A stretch of DNA of 64,000 nt from Gemmatimonadota bacterium (GTDB lineage Bacteria; Gemmatimonadota; Gemmatimonadetes; Palauibacterales; KS3-K002). The stretch covers positions 27,876 to 91,875 of the forward strand of contig JBDHJU010000007.1 of assembly GCA_039586755.1 (NCBI GenBank), in the 5' to 3' direction. Each line of letters begins with the position of its first letter. Position 1 is the first letter of the stretch. The notes under the pieces are model-generated. The model did not search any database. It saw only the letters and a list, made by a program, of their open reading frames with translations, and was not told the origin of the DNA. The position numbers were made by a program, and so were the translations under genes. Below are positions 1,589 to 47,748 of this stretch, one piece after another.

Positions 1589-2704
1589 ATGATCGTCGGA
1601 GTACCGAAGGAGATCAAAACGGCGGAGAACCGTGTGGCCATGGTGCCGGCGGGAGCGGAGACCTTGATCGCCCACGGTCACGAGGTGCTTGTCGAGAAGG
1701 ATGCCGGTGTCGGCAGTGGCTTCGATGATGCCGCGTACAAGGCTGCCGGTGCGACGATAATCGATAACGCCGACGATGTATGGGCGGGTTCGGAGATGAT
1801 CGTGAAGGTGAAAGAACCGATCCCTGAGGAGTACCCACGCGTGAAACGGGATCATGTGATCTTCACCTACTTCCACTACGCGGCGGACGAAACGTTGACG
1901 ATGGCGATGTTGGAAAGCGGCGCGGTGACAATTGCCTATGAGACCGTCCAGCTCGATAGCGGCGAACTGCCCTTGCTCACGCCGATGAGCGAGGTTGCAG
2001 GCCGCATGGCGATTCAGGAAGGCGCGAAATACCTGGAGAAGACTTTCGGCGGCCTCGGTATCCTGCTGGGCGGAGTGCCCGGTGTGCATCCTGCAGAGGT
2101 CGCGATTCTCGGCGGCGGCGTGGTCGGCACTCAGGCCGCATGGATGGCTGCCGGCCTGGGCGCTCGCGTCACGGTCCTCGACGTCAGCTTGGAGCGGCTG
2201 CGCTATCTGGACGACGTGATGCCCAAGAACGTCGTGGGCGAGTACTCGAACCGGCACAACGTATTAGATGCGATCAAGCGCGCCGATCTCGTCGTTGGGG
2301 CAGTACTGCTGCCCGGGGCGAAGGCACCACACCTGGTCTCCAGAGCGGATCTGAAACTGATGAAGGATGGGTCGGTGATCGTTGACGTCGCCGTCGACCA
2401 GGGTGGATGCGTCGAGACCGTGAAGCCTACGACGCACGAAGACCCGACCTACGTCGTCGAAGGGGTCATCCATTACTGCGTGGCGAACATGCCCGGTGCC
2501 GTGCCGCGCACGTCGACGCTGGCGCTGACCAACGCGACCTTCTCTTACGCGCTCAAGCTAGCGGACGATGGCTGGAATAAAGCCTGCCGCGAGGATCAAG
2601 CGCTGGCGCTGGGCGTGAATACGGTCGAGTCGAAGGTTACCTGCCCCGGCGTTGCAGAGGCCTTCGGCCTGGACTACACGCCTATCGGGGAAATCCTCGG
2701 GTAG
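1589..2704 (+). CDS. ald: Alanine dehydrogenase
   Basis: 371 aa. N-terminus MIVGVPKEIKTAENRVAMVPAG and NAD-binding GGGVVG motif are typical of Ald/AlaDH. Confidence 0.85.
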   Translation: MIVGVPKEIKTAENRVAMVPAGAETLIAHGHEVLVEKDAGVGSGFDDAAYKAAGATIIDNADDVWAGSEMIVKVKEPIPEEYPRVKRDHVIFTYFHYAADETLTMAMLESGAVTIAYETVQLDSGELPLLTPMSEVAGRMAIQEGAKYLEKTFGGLGILLGGVPGVHPAEVAILGGGVVGTQAAWMAAGLGARVTVLDVSLERLRYLDDVMPKNVVGEYSNRHNVLDAIKRADLVVGAVLLPGAKAPHLVSRADLKLMKDGSVIVDVAVDQGGCVETVKPTTHEDPTYVVEGVIHYCVANMPGAVPRTSTLALTNATFSYALKLADDGWNKACREDQALALGVNTVESKVTCPGVAEAFGLDYTPIGEILG

Positions 2705-2712
2705 GAGAATCT

Positions 2713-2830
2713 GGGATTCGGGGATTCGAAGAATTGGGGATTTTGGGAGCCGGAGATCCAGAAGTGCTTCGCACGTCTGGACCTCTGCAAATCGCCGAAT
2801 CCCCGAATCCCCGAATCCCCGAATCATTGC
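2713..2830. repeat. Large imperfect palindrome built from octamer repeats: (GATTCGGG)x4 ... nested palindrome ... (CCCGAATC)x4
   Basis: 2714-2748 reads gggattcggggattcgaagaattggggattttggg. 2795-2826 reads gccgaatccccgaatccccgaatccccgaatc, the inverted complement. Centre has a nested palindrome CCAGAaGTGCttcGCACgTCTGG. Confidence 0.7.
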
Positions 2831-2951
2831 CCCCCGTGCCCACTCTGTCTACTATTGGAGGCTAGACTACCCTGTCCGCCCAACCTGGGGGGTTGTGAGG
2901 ATTTGGAAAGCCGTGGGCTCCCGCCCACCGCCGGGAGGATGAGCTGATCTC

Positions 2952-3989
2952 ATGGGTTTTGGCTGGTTCGATACTGGTAGGCTGCTCCCTGTCAACGATA
3001 TAGCTGTCGACCTGGGCACGGCCAACACGCTGATCTATGTGAAGGGCGAGGGTATCGTCCTGAACGAACCGTCGGTGGTGGCCATCGACAAGTCGAACGG
3101 GAAGGTACTCGGCGTCGGGCTGGAGGCGAAGGGCATGCTCGGCCGGACGCCCGGTGGAATCGAGGCGGTTCGCCCGCTGAAGGACGGGGTGATCGCTGAC
3201 GTAGACGTGAGCGAACTGATGCTGAGGCACTTCCTCAGGATGGTGACGGCGAAGCGCGTCTTTCGCTTGAAGCCGCGCGTGGTGATCGGAGTGCCGTCGG
3301 GGATCACCGAACTGGAACGTCGGGCCGTGCGGGCGGGTGCGCAGGCGGCGGGTGCCAAGGAAGTCTATATGGTGGCGGAGCCCATGGCCGCCGCGATCGG
3401 TGTGGGTCTACCGGTGGAGACGCCGACCGGAAACATGGTGATCGACATCGGTGGTGGCACGACCGAGATCGCCGTGATCGCTTTGGGCGGTATCGTCTCG
3501 GACACGTCGATTAGGGTGGGTGGTGACGAGATCGATGCGGCGATCGTCACCTTTTTGCGAAAGAACTACAACCTCCTTGTCGGCGAGCCGACCGCCGAAG
3601 CGATCAAGATTCAGATCGGGTCGGCCGCCCCGGTGGGCGATGAACGTGAGATGGACGTGAAAGGACGCGATCTCGTCTCCGGCATCCCTAAGACGGTGCG
3701 CATCCATTCCGAGGAGGTCAGAGAACACATCCAGGAACCGATTCAGCAGGTGGTCGAGGCGGTCCGTCGGGCGCTGGAGATCACGCCGCCCGAACTGGCC
3801 AGCGACATTGTTGATCGCGGGATCGTGATGACCGGCGGCGGCTCGCTGATCCGCGGGCTGGATCGACTCCTGCAGGAAGAAACCAACTTACCGATCCACG
3901 TGGATGAGGAACCACTGACGTGCGTAGTCCGTGGCGGCGGACGCATCCTCGACGACCTTCCCAGATACAGAGGGGTGCTGTCCAGCTGA
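2952..3989 (+). CDS. mreB: Rod shape-determining actin homolog MreB
   Basis: 345 aa. DLGTANTLIYVKGEGIVLNEPSVVAI is a near-identical N-terminal MreB signature. First gene of mreBCD-mrdA-rodA. Confidence 0.95.
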   Translation: MGFGWFDTGRLLPVNDIAVDLGTANTLIYVKGEGIVLNEPSVVAIDKSNGKVLGVGLEAKGMLGRTPGGIEAVRPLKDGVIADVDVSELMLRHFLRMVTAKRVFRLKPRVVIGVPSGITELERRAVRAGAQAAGAKEVYMVAEPMAAAIGVGLPVETPTGNMVIDIGGGTTEIAVIALGGIVSDTSIRVGGDEIDAAIVTFLRKNYNLLVGEPTAEAIKIQIGSAAPVGDEREMDVKGRDLVSGIPKTVRIHSEEVREHIQEPIQQVVEAVRRALEITPPELASDIVDRGIVMTGGGSLIRGLDRLLQEETNLPIHVDEEPLTCVVRGGGRILDDLPRYRGVLSS

Positions 3990-9349: not shown

Positions 9350-9428
9350 ACCGGTGACCGGCGACCGGTAGCCGGTGGGGACGGGCCGATTTCCACCGGC
9401 CACCGACCACTGGCTACCGAGAATCTGC
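9350..9428. repeat. REP-like palindromic element (CCGGTAGCCGGTG family), copy 1
   Basis: accggtagccggtgg..gatttccaccggccaccgaccactggctaccg: imperfect hairpin. Same family recurs at 13935-13990. Confidence 0.6.
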
Positions 9429-16338: not shown

Positions 16339-16349
16339 GATGGGAATCC

Positions 16350-16491
16350 GGGAATTCGGCAATCCACGACTACTCGATTAATAGACCAATAGACGATTCG
16401 ATTTGAGAATGTGACCGCGAGAAGCCGTCGATTCCTGGTTCAGATGCTCCTTGGATCAAGACTTCAAGAAGTCATGGATTGCCGAATTCCC
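16350..16491. repeat. 142-bp element bounded by 22-bp terminal inverted repeats; fills a convergent intergenic gap
   Basis: Left arm gggaattcggcaatccacgact (16350-16371) pairs with right arm agtcatggattgccgaattccc (16470-16491), 21/22 match. About 100-bp comparatively AT-rich core. Abuts the stop codons of nif3 and the minus-strand lipoprotein. Confidence 0.65.
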
Positions 16492-24096: not shown

Positions 24097-24367
24097 ACCG
24101 GGGGATCGAAAGAACCTCGACACCTGACAGCCTACAGCCGACAATCGGTTTTCCAGCATCACCTTTACCACCGACTCTCGACGTCCGATGACCGACGGCC
24201 AGCGTCGAACCTCGAACAGCGGACGTCGAGCGTCGAACGCCGAGAAACAGCCGGTCGTCGATAACCGGCTGTCGGCTGTCGACCTGTCCCTCATTCTCTC
24301 TTTCTTCATCACGAACTGTGCGGTCGACAACCGGCCTGGTTTACTCTATTCTTGTAACGTGTTCCTG

Positions 24368-27511: not shown

Positions 27512-30500
27512 AGCACCCCGCATCTTCTCCCCAGAGCCGCGTCCGCGCCCTGTGGCGGCGCGTAGCCCTGCAGCTGGGCCTAGCCGCCCTTGGCGGCGCC
27601 CTGGCGGCCGCCGGTGGCCTGCTGCTGTTGAGTTGGCTGGCCGGCTCCAGCCCGCTCTGGCAGAGGCCTTCCGTGCTACCGCTGGTGCTCTTAGCCTCGG
27701 CGTTCGCAGCAGCCGCTGCGTGGTTGGGGAGCCTTGCCCGCAGAGCATCGCGCTGGGACCGGGAGGCGGCCGCAGCGGAGATCGAAGAGCGGGTCGGTCT
27801 GCCACGCGGGTCGGTGCGCGGCGCTGTGGAGCCCGGATTGGAAAGGCCGGGTACGTCGCGCTCGCTCATCGAACTGCACCGATCGCGACTAGCGAAGGCA
27901 CTGGAGGGGTTTGGCCCGGCCGAACTGGGGAGCGCCGTGGCCCGGGCCGCGCGCGCCCAGGCAGCGGTCACGCTGACGCTGGCGCTCGTCGCGCTCGTCG
28001 CTTCCCTCGCAGTCTGGCTGGGCGCGCGGGACCAGGCGGTCACGGCATGGGCTGCCGTTCTTCGCCCCGTTCGTCACCTCTCTGCGCCACCTCTACCTCC
28101 GATCCGTCTGGATGCCGACCGCGAGATCCGCCGCGGGCGGGACCTGCGGGTGCAGGTTGAGGCAGCGTTACGCGACTCGGTGCAGTTGGCCTGGCAGCCA
28201 CGGGGCGAGGTGGTGCGGCGGCGGTGGTTGGCAATCAGCGGTGGAAGTGGAGAGGCCACAGTTCGGCGCGTCGAATCGCCACTGGCGATATGGGTGGAGG
28301 CGCCGGACGGTGCGCTCAGCGACACGTTGCGCGTCGAGACCGTCGATCCGCTTCTTCTCATCGATCTGCGCATCGATCTCCGGTTCCCTCCCCACACGCG
28401 CCGTGAGACGGAAGTGTTCTCGGACCTGCCTACCGTCATGGTGGTGCCCGAAGGCACCCGGGCCACGGTCACCGGAGTGACGACGCGACCGGTGGGGCGT
28501 GCTGTGCTCACAGCTTCCGGCGGCCGCACGATCCCGTTCGCCGTCAGCGACGCGCGCCGTTTCCGCTCATCGTTCGCGGTGACGTCGGGAACATGGGGAT
28601 GGGACATCGTCGGCTTGGGAGGAGAGGCTCTCGAAGGTGAGCCCGACTCGCTCCGTTTTCTGACCGTGCCGGACAGCGTGCCGCGGGTCCGGATAACACA
28701 TCCAGGCGTCGATACGCTTCTCAGCGTCGACATGACGCAGCCGCTACTCATCGAGGCCAGCGATGACTACGGTCTCTCTCGGGTCGAGCTCGTCAGCTGG
28801 CGTGTCTCGGCGTGGGGCGAGCGATGGCCTGAAGAGGTAGAAGCGCTGCCCAGCGGCTCTGACATGCCGCGAGCCAACCTGGCCGGCCTGGTCGATGCAC
28901 GCGGTCGCGGATTCCTGCCCGGTGATACTCTGCGCTACTTCGCCCGCGTCTACGACAACGCTCCCGATCCCCAGATCGGGGTGAGTCGTGAGTACGTACT
29001 GCGACTGCCGAGCCTGGATGAAGTCCGTGAGCGTGCCGTCGCCGACGCCCGCGACTTGGTGGAGGACGCCGAGAGCCTGGCCGAGCGGGCGCAGGAGCAT
29101 CAGGAGGCGATGCAGGCGCTTGAGCGCTCGACCGAGGTACGGCCACCGCCGGGCCAGAACCTCCTGGGGCCGGAAAAAGGTGAACGGGGCGTCGAGTTTC
29201 GCGAGACGGAGGAAGCGCGTCGTGCTCTGGAACAAGCGGAGAGGCTTTTGCAGGCCTCGCGCGAGATCTCCGAGTCACTTCGCGAGTTGCAGGAGAACAT
29301 CGAACGTGCCGGATTGAATGACGAGAGCGTGCTGGAGCGGCTGGCCGAGATCGAGTCGCTGTTCGAGCGTGTGCTGACGCCTGAACTGCAGGAGCGGTTC
29401 GATGCGCTGCGCGAAGCGCTGGTCGAGCTCGATCCGGAGCAGATCCGCGAGGCGATTCGACAGCTGAGCGAAGGCAGCGTGGATTTCCGCGCACGAGTCG
29501 AGCGCGCCGTCGAGTTGCTGCGCCGCGCGGCAATGGAGCAGGAGTTCCTGACTCTAGAGACGCAGGCGGAGGAGCTGGTCGAGGCGCAGGAAGAGCTCGC
29601 CGATGCCGTCTCCGATGCGGTAGCCGAAGCGAGCGGCGGGGAGGTCGAGGATTCGGTGGCGGGGCCGCTGGCGCGGCGCGCCGCCGAGCTTGCGGAGCAG
29701 GCGGACGAACTTTCGCGCGGGGTGGGCGAGCTGGCAGAAGAGCTGGCGGCGGCGATGGAGGAGCTGGCGGCAGAACGGGCGGGAGCGGCGGAACGCGCCG
29801 CGGCTGACGCGGCCGGATCCGACCAGCAGGCGGCCGGCGATCTGCCGAGCCGGCCAGGCGGGGCGCGGAGTGCTTCGCAGCGGGCGCTGGCACAGATGCA
29901 GCGGGCGGCCTCGGAGCTGCGGGAAGGCCGCCAGGAGATGCAGGAGGCCTGGCGCCAGGATGTGGTGGCCGCGATGGGGCGGGCCCAGGCGGAGGCGCTG
30001 GAGCTGGCGCGTCGGCAGCGCGAGCTGAACGAGCGAATGAGCTCGGTAGGTGAGCGGCGAAACTCGGATGCCATGTCCGATCAGGTCGCGATGCGCGGCG
30101 CTGTGCAGCAGGTCGAGGACCAGCTTACCGAGGTTTCGGAGACATCCTTGCTGGTCGACCCGAGGTTGGCGCAGGCGGCAGCGCAGATTGGCGCGGCGAT
30201 GGAGGAGTTGGTTAGCCAGATGGCCGATGCCAGTCGTGCCGGGCCGCCTGACTGGCGCCTGGGAGACGGCGCCAGCGAAGGGCTGGCCGAGCTGGCGTAC
30301 CGCCTGATGCAGGCCGGCGATGCGGCGGCGATGGCTCAGTCGGGCACCGGGCTCCAGGAAGCGTTGGCGCGACTCGCCCAGCTGGCCGAGCAACAGGGCG
30401 CTCTGAACCAGGAGTTGGGCGGTATGACGTTGGGCGACGCGTTGCTACGCGAACTCCAGCGCCTCGCCGGCCAGCAACGAGCTGTGGCGCAGGACCTGGG

Positions 30501-47672: not shown

Positions 47673-47705
47673 CCGGGAAAAGAACGAGCTAGCAGGGCGC
47701 TGCGA

Positions 47706-47748
47706 CAGCCCGACATCGATGCGATCGATGTCGGGCTGTTCGTCTTCG
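47706..47748 (+). terminator. Strong hairpin terminator (15-bp perfect stem, 3-nt loop)
   Basis: CAGCCCGACATCGAT-gcg-ATCGATGTCGGGCTG followed by TTCGTCTTCG. Confidence 0.7.

Follow-up and report, generated by a model that had tools for sequence, protein, structure and literature searches.

In the 247-nt spacer between ald and mreB of a Gemmatimonadota bacterium, the first half is occupied by a long palindrome built from tandem octamers (positions 2705-2825). The DNA analysed is a stretch of 64,000 nt (GenBank assembly GCA_039586755.1, contig JBDHJU010000007.1, forward-strand positions 27,876 to 91,875), hereafter called the window, and positions are numbered from its first letter. The palindrome is one copy of a multi-copy family in which hairpins stand after stop codons, their stems pairing a 5' arm of tandem (GGGGATTC)n with a 3' arm of tandem (GAATCCCC)n. 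We read it as a hypervariable palindromic minisatellite that has grown in place at the 3' end of ald, where it most likely provides a 3'-end hairpin for transcription termination or for protection against exonucleases; the probability that we attach to this reading, in which the function is inferred, is roughly 0.55. On this reading the element is not a specific regulator of mreB. Its parts are as follows.

2702..2704, plus strand: stop codon TAG of ald, from the list of open reading frames (ORFs), Pfam AlaDh_PNT_N/C and the source name 'alanine dehydrogenase'; the palindrome starts at the next base
2705..2749, unstranded: 5' G-rich arm of 5-6 degenerate GGGATTCG-type octamers in an 8-nt register, from the sequence, Tandem Repeats Finder (TRF) and inverted repeats
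2705-2712: G-arm unit GAGAATCT, from the sequence
2713-2720 and 2721-2728: G-arm units GGGATTCG, from the sequence; TRF gives period 8 at 2713-2728
2729-2736: G-arm unit AAGAATTG, from the sequence
2737-2744: G-arm unit GGGATTTT, from the sequence
from 2745: last, partial G-arm unit GGGAG, from the sequence
2752..2785, unstranded: central nested palindrome GGAGATCCAGAAGTGC-ttc-GCACGTCTGGACCTC, from the sequence, folds and the alignment of close relatives
2758-2780: core of that palindrome, CCAGAAGTGC (2758-2767), ttc, GCACGTCTGG (2771-2780), from the sequence
2789..2825, unstranded: 3' C-rich arm of about 4.5 units, from TRF, a pattern search with shuffles and an inverted-repeat search
2789-2796, 2797-2820 and 2821-2825: C-arm units AAATCGCC, GAATCCCC three times, and GAATC, from the sequence

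An inverted-repeat search paired 2707-2743 with 2789-2825, two arms of 37 nt each that are 81% complementary and spaced 45 nt apart, and TRF described the C-rich arm (2790-2825) as 4.5 copies of period 8 with 96% matches. The 16-mer CCCGAATCCCCGAATC, with up to two mismatches, occurs five times, always within the element, while shuffles lead one to expect 0.11 occurrences. When folded as RNA, the region 2700-2845 reaches -73.4 kcal/mol on the plus strand (z -6.6) and -76.0 kcal/mol on the minus strand (z -6.0), a strength matched by none of 200 shuffles; folded as DNA, the element region gives -36.6 kcal/mol (z -4.6). A search of the whole window against Rfam returned no hit at gathering thresholds, and the sub-threshold matches consisted only of miRNA-precursor look-alikes (E 0.2-0.5). 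A preliminary description of this DNA had proposed octamer arrays in inverted orientation around a nested central palindrome, able to form an RNA hairpin of more than 100 nt between ald and mreB. The sequence, TRF, the inverted-repeat search and the RNA folds bear this out, and the coordinates hold to within a few bases, but the G-rich arm has five to six units instead of the four first counted.

The same element length, with a single-nucleotide polymorphism, was found in six further independent metagenome assemblies, and the palindrome is therefore not an assembly artefact. The sole polymorphism among the seven assemblies is a G-to-C change at window position 2722 in L003 (fetched loci carry L numbers), which turns GGGG into GGCG in the second perfect unit of the G-rich arm.

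The motif GAATCCCCGAATCCCCGAATC was scanned over one genome per species (596 Gb) and was found at at least 117 loci, against about 0.3 exact 21-mers expected by chance according to our own estimate. Among the matches listed, 42 loci come from nine Gemmatimonadota metagenome-assembled genomes (MAGs), 11 of them from bin1194 (CP070812.1), and the remaining listed loci belong to Planctomycetota, Pseudomonadota, Actinomycetota, Bacteroidota, Acidobacteriota and Verrucomicrobiota. Paired copies, counted in the listed Gemmatimonadota loci plus the window, amount to 20 elements. All 20 have the G-rich arm on the 5' side and the C-rich arm on the 3' side, and none has the opposite order, an arrangement that reads alike on both strands; once orthologous loci are collapsed, about 16 independent sites remain (p ~1.5e-5 for the arm order). 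Every paired copy folds as a long, near-perfect hairpin of about 80 to 260 nt (103-280 nt with 12-nt flanks), and nested layers of different octamers (GGGGATTC, GGGGAGGT, GAATCCGTG and their complements) around a variable centre are common. At non-orthologous sites these centres are unrelated. The centre of the ald-mreB element (2745-2790) has no match among the fetched loci; only its octamer arms do.

Gene context was taken from a gene call based on the base composition of third codon positions (GC3), stop-to-stop ORFs being uninformative in GC-rich DNA. The 17 classifiable paired copies lie between co-directional (8), convergent (7) or divergent (2) gene pairs. Copies facing a gene 3' end are within 20 nt of the stop codon in 10 of 17 cases, and several overlap the stop. 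Seven of the eight co-directional copies are closer to the upstream stop than to the downstream start, and copies between convergent genes occupy the entire spacer.

Other repeat palindromes were seen along the window, three of them (9350-9420, 16340-16491 and 24117-24283) hairpins built in the same manner behind further stop codons. After an accD-like gene, at 9350-9420, four ACCGGYG heptamers face four heptamers of the CCACCGG type and form a hairpin. At 24117-24283, behind the clpB stop, a long inverted structure has CGACAGC-type heptamers in its left arm and GCTGTCG heptamers in its right arm, which enclose a further stem, CTCGACGTCCG/CGGACGTCGAG. Its polarity is opposite to that of the octamer family: the C-rich arm comes first (5'). 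At 47705-47739, behind a gene end, the 16-bp arms of ACAGCCCGACATCGAT-gcg-ATCGATGTCGGGCTGT pair perfectly and form a further strong hairpin; the tail of this palindrome is only weakly T-rich (TCGTCTTCG), and the canonical terminator scan did not report it. Further arrays of 7-nt units with unrelated sequences were observed in Planctomycetota, Acidobacteriota and Bacteroidota loci among L007-L123 (TGAGCTT x12.6, GTCAGTG/CTGACCA pairs, CGCGAGG x8.3; for example L034 3744-3832, L037 2271-2396 and L050 117-174). Period-7 arrays are about three times denser in those loci than in control Ald loci, and minisatellites of heptamers and octamers look like a general trait of these three phyla.

The ald-mreB site was compared at three depths, namely within the same population, among close relatives with full synteny, and among relatives at about 72% Ald identity. 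The close relatives comprise bin1194 (L204) and, as L205-L207, two further MAGs plus a sequencing-run (Logan) contig. In the alignment, a palindrome stands at the same spot in each of them in heavily remodelled form: identity of the octamer element to the window is 68% in L204 and 80% in L205, with 30-31 gapped positions, and 61.5% between L204 and L205. Coding DNA of the locus (M16 peptidase gene, ald, mreB and mreC) is 85-93% identical to that of the window, and the element is the least conserved segment of the ald-mreB locus. Every version in the close relatives nevertheless folds strongly (z -4.6 to -6.4). L205-L207 lack the left half of the nested centre and carry only GCACTTCTGGACCTCT, and the extra 22 nt of the window are the reverse complement of the GCACTTCTGGACCTCT stretch. 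A 22-nt inverted duplication of the centre, possibly in the lineage of the window, would account for this; the centre of L204 cannot be aligned.

Six relatives at about 72% Ald identity keep ald beside mreB. In two of the six, a short unannotated extra ORF lies in the ald-mreB spacer of 540-630 nt. In the other four the octamer array is absent, and in three of these four the ald stop is followed at once by a GC-rich hairpin. L131 has a stem of 14 bp whose tail is rich in T, and L125 a 5-bp terminator-like hairpin followed by GTTTTT, both of which pass a terminator scan; the 12-bp GGGGAGGGGTCCC/GGGACCCCTCC hairpin of L130 is followed only by TTT and fails it. Alignment of the window spacer with those of the 72%-identity relatives was too diverged for placing a shared mreB promoter. 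The pattern that the preliminary description had itself set against its proposal, absence from relatives of the same synteny combined with presence at many unrelated loci, is essentially what was found.

Two natural experiments bear on how such hairpins arise. The orthologous loci L052, L078 and L104 share a common central GC-rich hairpin (aggggcgcc...ggcgcccct) and have very different arrays. L104 has C-rich units, about seven to eight of them, on its 3' side alone, while L052 and L078 have arms on both sides that differ in unit types and numbers, with the upstream stop codon lying within the first unit. In the spacer between accD and folC, bin1194 is empty (L204 17716-17790), the window has its hairpin of ACCGGYG heptamers, and L205 (17722-17865) has a heptamer hairpin in which GCGGTAT/GCAGTAT units stand against CCGCACA. 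Both cases argue for growth in place rather than for insertion of a finished unit. As the simplest account of these cases and of the probable inverted duplication at the ald-mreB centre, we suggest that the arrays would grow on or around a pre-existing hairpin of the terminator type, that replication slippage would add and remove units of 7-8 nt, and that intrastrand template switching (quasi-palindrome correction) would copy changes from one arm to the other. It is through such copying, as proposed here, that complementarity would outlast the rapid turnover of sequence.

On the downstream side, the element adjoins the leader of the cell-shape genes. The neighbouring features are given below.

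1589-2704: ald, alanine dehydrogenase, Pfam AlaDh_PNT_N/C
2827..2951, plus strand: mreB leader and promoter region, which abuts the repeat and lies outside it, from alignment and identities
2952..3989, plus strand: mreB, first gene of mreB-mreC-mreD-PBP2-rodA, from called genes with Pfam MreB_Mbl, MreC, MreD, PBP_dimer/Transpeptidase and FTSW_RODA_SPOVE

Window Ald, MreB and PBP2 fall into 90%-identity clusters shared with proteins of Gemmatimonadota MAGs, including UCC82386.1 on CP070812.1 (bin1194, a complete chromosome), and judged by these proteins the host is a Gemmatimonadota bacterium close to bin1194. The 125-nt mreB leader is 96.8% identical between the window and the close relatives (bin1194, L205) and 100% identical between L204 and L205. 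Since the coding DNA reaches only 85-93%, the leader is, by the measure of sequence identity, under stronger constraint than the genes that flank it. As a structured RNA it gives nothing, the fold being no better than shuffles (z 0.07) and no Rfam hit being found. By eye, a putative promoter, TTGCCC-17-TACTAT, may be read at 2827-2855, below the threshold of the scan, and the promoter scan of 2300-3300 reported nothing on the plus strand. A two-codon ATG-AGC-TGA, also read by eye, immediately precedes the mreB ATG.

For the function of the element, we favour a hairpin at the 3' end of the ald message. Right behind the stop codon, the ald transcript would form a hairpin with about 40 bp. Such a hairpin, without a U-tract, would block 3'-to-5' exonucleases and/or help factor-dependent termination, and it would separate transcription of ald from that of the mreB operon with its own conserved leader. 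The position is terminator-like because the element begins right after the ald stop, because relatives bear terminator hairpins there, and because it is the only strong structure before the mreB leader. The role is favoured further by reports of stem-loops without U-tracts at comparable ends: PMC13613805, citing Dar and Sorek (2018), describes them as marking 3' ends in Streptomyces and, in E. coli, those 3' ends that depend on Rho. Of the uses suggested in the preliminary description, a terminator or attenuator for ald is thus the best fit by position and by the hairpins of relatives at this spot, but not in the form of a canonical intrinsic terminator, the tail after the 3' arm being CATTGCCCCCC. 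A role of the C-rich arm in loading Rho (a Rho utilization, or rut, site) was also considered and rejected; unpaired arrays in Gemmatimonadota show no strand bias with respect to the genes beside them, with 4 in the C-sense and 6 in the G-sense.

Several observations weigh against a 3'-end hairpin that grew in this way. The scan of 2300-3300 found no terminator-like site on either strand and no U-tract. Canonical terminators of the hairpin-plus-T-run kind occur elsewhere in the genome (185-217 and 44563-44592), so that a terminator role here would be non-canonical. The sense strand folds better in five of the eight co-directional copies, worse in two and equally well in one; the antisense strand has a slight folding advantage at the ald site of the window and of L204, and the orthologues are mixed. 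There is thus no strand asymmetry that would point to selection on RNA, and the complementarity of the arms could persist by template switching alone, without selection for function. Slippage and template switching are themselves inferred from the comparisons rather than observed. Moreover, no variation in unit number was seen among the seven assemblies of the same population, and turnover is therefore not fast on the population time scale.

The missing strand asymmetry feeds the most serious rival, in which the element is a neutral or selfish by-product of slippage and template switching in harmless intergenic space beside gene 3' ends, with no effect on ald or mreB. The low conservation of the element within its locus, the fact that orthologous sites differ in the number and sequence of units and even in having an array at all, and the lack of a sense/antisense folding bias are all in its favour, and Rehm et al. 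(2015) found no regulatory role for the analogous G-rich repeats that they described. It is harder to reconcile with the strength of the hairpin, which is kept in every orthologue despite heavy turnover of the sequence, and with the location of the copies, which occupy the exact place of the terminator-type hairpins of relatives in a spacer having no other terminator, and which fill the whole spacer between convergent genes. In addition, RNA decay could hardly remain unaffected by a stem of about 40 bp within a transcribed 3' untranslated region. We regard neutrality as a possible explanation, to be taken seriously, and our preference stays tentatively with the 3'-end hairpin.

More speculative is the idea of a dedicated, lineage-wide process going beyond slippage, for example hairpin-targeted template switching or a nuclease/repair activity. 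Such a process might build strand-symmetric palindromes, G-rich in the 5' arm and C-rich in the 3' arm, from arbitrary 7-8-nt units on terminator hairpins. It would thereby furnish terminators or insulators that work in both directions and need no U-tract, in Gemmatimonadota and perhaps also in Planctomycetota, Acidobacteriota and Xanthomonas. It would explain both the invariant order of the arms and the presence of different unit types at one orthologous site, and we consider it improbable.

That a transposase placed the palindrome between ald and mreB as a mobile element, either a miniature inverted-repeat transposable element (MITE) or an element resembling repetitive extragenic palindromic (REP) sequences, is quite unlikely. 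The window does hold, at 16340-16491, one copy of an element of about 150 nt whose family is dispersed, with a conserved core, terminal inverted repeats GGGAATTCGGCAATCC / GGATTGCCGAATTCCC and GGGAATYC termini. Copies occur in the Gemmatimonadota MAG loci L020, L106, L028 and L097, and the right end is sometimes followed by GAATCCCC arrays. Likewise, in Ca. Kutchimonas denitrificans (L031, L060, L087, L099 and L118) a repeat of about 100 nt (GAATCCGCTTCCACAATTCGGAGAGAACT...) lies by GAATCCCC arrays at at least five loci with 82-92% identity. Going by these sequences, some array-bearing elements also spread as units in a copy-and-paste manner. At the ald-mreB site, on the other hand, the centre recurs at no other fetched locus, just as the centres of paired copies at non-orthologous sites are unrelated. 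Stepwise remodelling, rather than gain or loss of one whole unit, separates the orthologous copies. The ends of the element show no target-site duplication, and no transposase gene was identified, though the window proteins were not searched for one. Measured against the definition of a MITE, the element has no internal sequence shared with other copies in about 1.5 Mb of related DNA and no flanking direct repeat. Of the 'MITE-like insertion' once suggested, the dispersal of the unit arrays stands, whereas a common core is missing and orthologous copies have been remodelled in place. As a separate observation, the 16340-16491 element sits between a NIF3-family gene and a convergent hypothetical gene and is MITE-like in appearance; at this site the strain-level variants L208 and L209 have a spacer of identical length and so add no information.

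A G-quadruplex (G4) or i-motif element, whose four-tract arms would modulate transcription or replication near the mreB promoter, is very unlikely. (GGGGATTC)n fits the motif for a G4; in vitro, G4s and i-motifs arise from the analogous GGGAATC and GGGGAYT repeats, which prefer four units; and a G4 is predicted for the minus-strand arm taken alone. Neither arm, however, meets the strict motif (G3+, loops of 1-7 nt). As to the four G-tracts of the Rehm repeats, the element contains no strict putative quadruplex sequence, and a relaxed one needs loops of up to 12 nt (12 nt on the plus strand, 9 nt on the minus strand). G4-aware folding of the whole element still yields the hairpin (-73 and -76 kcal/mol), and many hairpin layers of the family have no G-tracts at all (GAATCCGTG/CACGGATTC, heptamers ACCGGTG and CGACAGC).

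Least credible is control of mreBCD-mrdA-rodA through this stretch, whether by a multimeric DNA-binding protein with eight short sites in a row or by methylation of clustered GANTC sites. What invites it is the regular 8-nt spacing, a place directly upstream of a highly conserved leader, and a density of GANTC that is unequalled in the window, at 7 sites in 125 nt where the mean is 0.46. But the units have not been kept at this site among close relatives, a period of 8 nt would set successive sites on different faces of the helix, and the 72%-identity relatives keep the operon without the array. Elsewhere in the window GANTC shows no avoidance and no enrichment (observed/expected 0.94), and a CcrM-type cluster was rejected, there being no sign that this site is handled specially; the clustering is a by-product of the unit sequence. 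The regulatory array for the mreBCD operon that had been proposed earlier is not supported: the element is 61-80% identical between close relatives, with 30-nt indels, where the adjacent leader is 97-100% identical, and the same octamer arrays adjoin unrelated genes at dozens of loci. An integron attC site was rejected, as RYYYAAC and GTTRRRY cores are absent at the ends of the element and the neighbours are housekeeping genes in conserved synteny, and so was a retron, as core motifs and partner genes are missing from the sequence and the gene context.

A tempting lead, a special regulatory array for the cell-shape operon, is thereby dismissed, and the element takes its place in a recognisable class. 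As the orthologous comparisons show, such hairpins are reshaped on the spot at the 3' ends of genes, next to DNA that stays constant. If these hairpins do act as terminators without U-tracts or as RNA-stabilising ends, terminator predictors would miss them in Gemmatimonadota. Their hypervariability makes them strain markers and a likely source of assembly breaks.

Among known systems, intrinsic terminators resemble the element in having a stable hairpin right after the stop codon, and, like bidirectional terminators, the copies between convergent genes take up the whole spacer. They differ in that the element has no U-tract on either strand and a stem of about 40 bp, compared with the usual 5-14 bp. 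REP sequences, with the bacterial interspersed mosaic elements (BIMEs) and REP doublets forming hairpins (REPINs), are multi-copy extragenic palindromes of Enterobacteria and Pseudomonas found at 3' ends and between convergent genes, where as RNA they keep 3' exonucleases from degrading the mRNA upstream. The sequence of REPs is conserved over about 35 nt and bears GTAG at its 5' end; a REP-associated tyrosine transposase (RAYT) goes with them, and their copies, numbering hundreds, are nearly identical within a genome. They may be called functional analogues; REPs are not made of tandem 8-nt units, and here the centres are unrelated between sites, with no conserved sequence outside the arrays from copy to copy, so that the element falls outside the REP/BIME/REPIN definition.

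The short tandemly repeated repetitive (STRR) sequences of cyanobacteria are another point of reference, and their units, as Vioque is said to have reported in 1997, can lengthen helix P12 of RNase P RNA. STRR and TAACTGA heptamers (MacGregor 2015, PMC4679880; STRR are also mentioned in passing in PMC2858038) are, like the present family, tandem intergenic short units with many types per genome. Heptamer arrays were also seen by us in Cyanobacteria and Bacteroidota, phyla shared with the STRR and TAACTGA repeats. Those repeats differ in being mostly direct arrays of other units with a 7-nt period, with TAACTGA often just upstream of start codons, and they are not described as palindromes abutting stop codons. 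With its 8-nt unit and Gemmatimonadota host, the element does not fit the definition of STRR as, for example, CCCCAGT heptanucleotides of heterocystous cyanobacteria.

In a text search of the literature, the 16-mer array occurred in no paper and bare octamers matched only primers; no paper linking Gemmatimonadota with G-quadruplex repeats was found. The closest known system is that of the G-rich repeats described by Rehm et al. (2015), GGGAATC in Xanthomonas and GGGGA(C/T)T in Nostoc. These are 89-93% intergenic and mostly of four units, are found beside the 5' neighbouring ORF or no more than 50 nt from a stop codon (in Xanthomonas at a mean of 28 nt from the 5' neighbouring ORF, with most of them transcribed), and include 70-75 convergent inverted array pairs per genome with the potential to form a stem-loop or cruciform (PMC4692102). 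They vary widely in length and sequence between close species, have no tie to particular gene functions or to insertion sequence (IS) elements, and had no function identified (PMC4692102). The element departs from them in its unit of 8 nt (GGGGATTC) instead of 7, in the phylum of its host, and in its family's multilayered hairpins, in which several nested octamers surround a central hairpin over up to about 260 nt. By their array definition (GGGAATC, at least 14 bp of 7-nt units) it does not qualify, the period being 8 and neither GGGAATC nor GATTCCC occurring in 2705-2825. It agrees with them in build and position, since both have tandem units of a short G-tract plus A/T-rich bases, about four units to an array, an intergenic place by the stop codon and a G-rich arm followed by a C-rich one; the ald-mreB copy begins 1 nt after the stop, and its convergent arrays have 5-6 and about 4.5 units. 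The little-studied Gemmatimonadota thus carry an 8-nt version of the unexplained G-rich inverted repeats of Xanthomonas and Nostoc.

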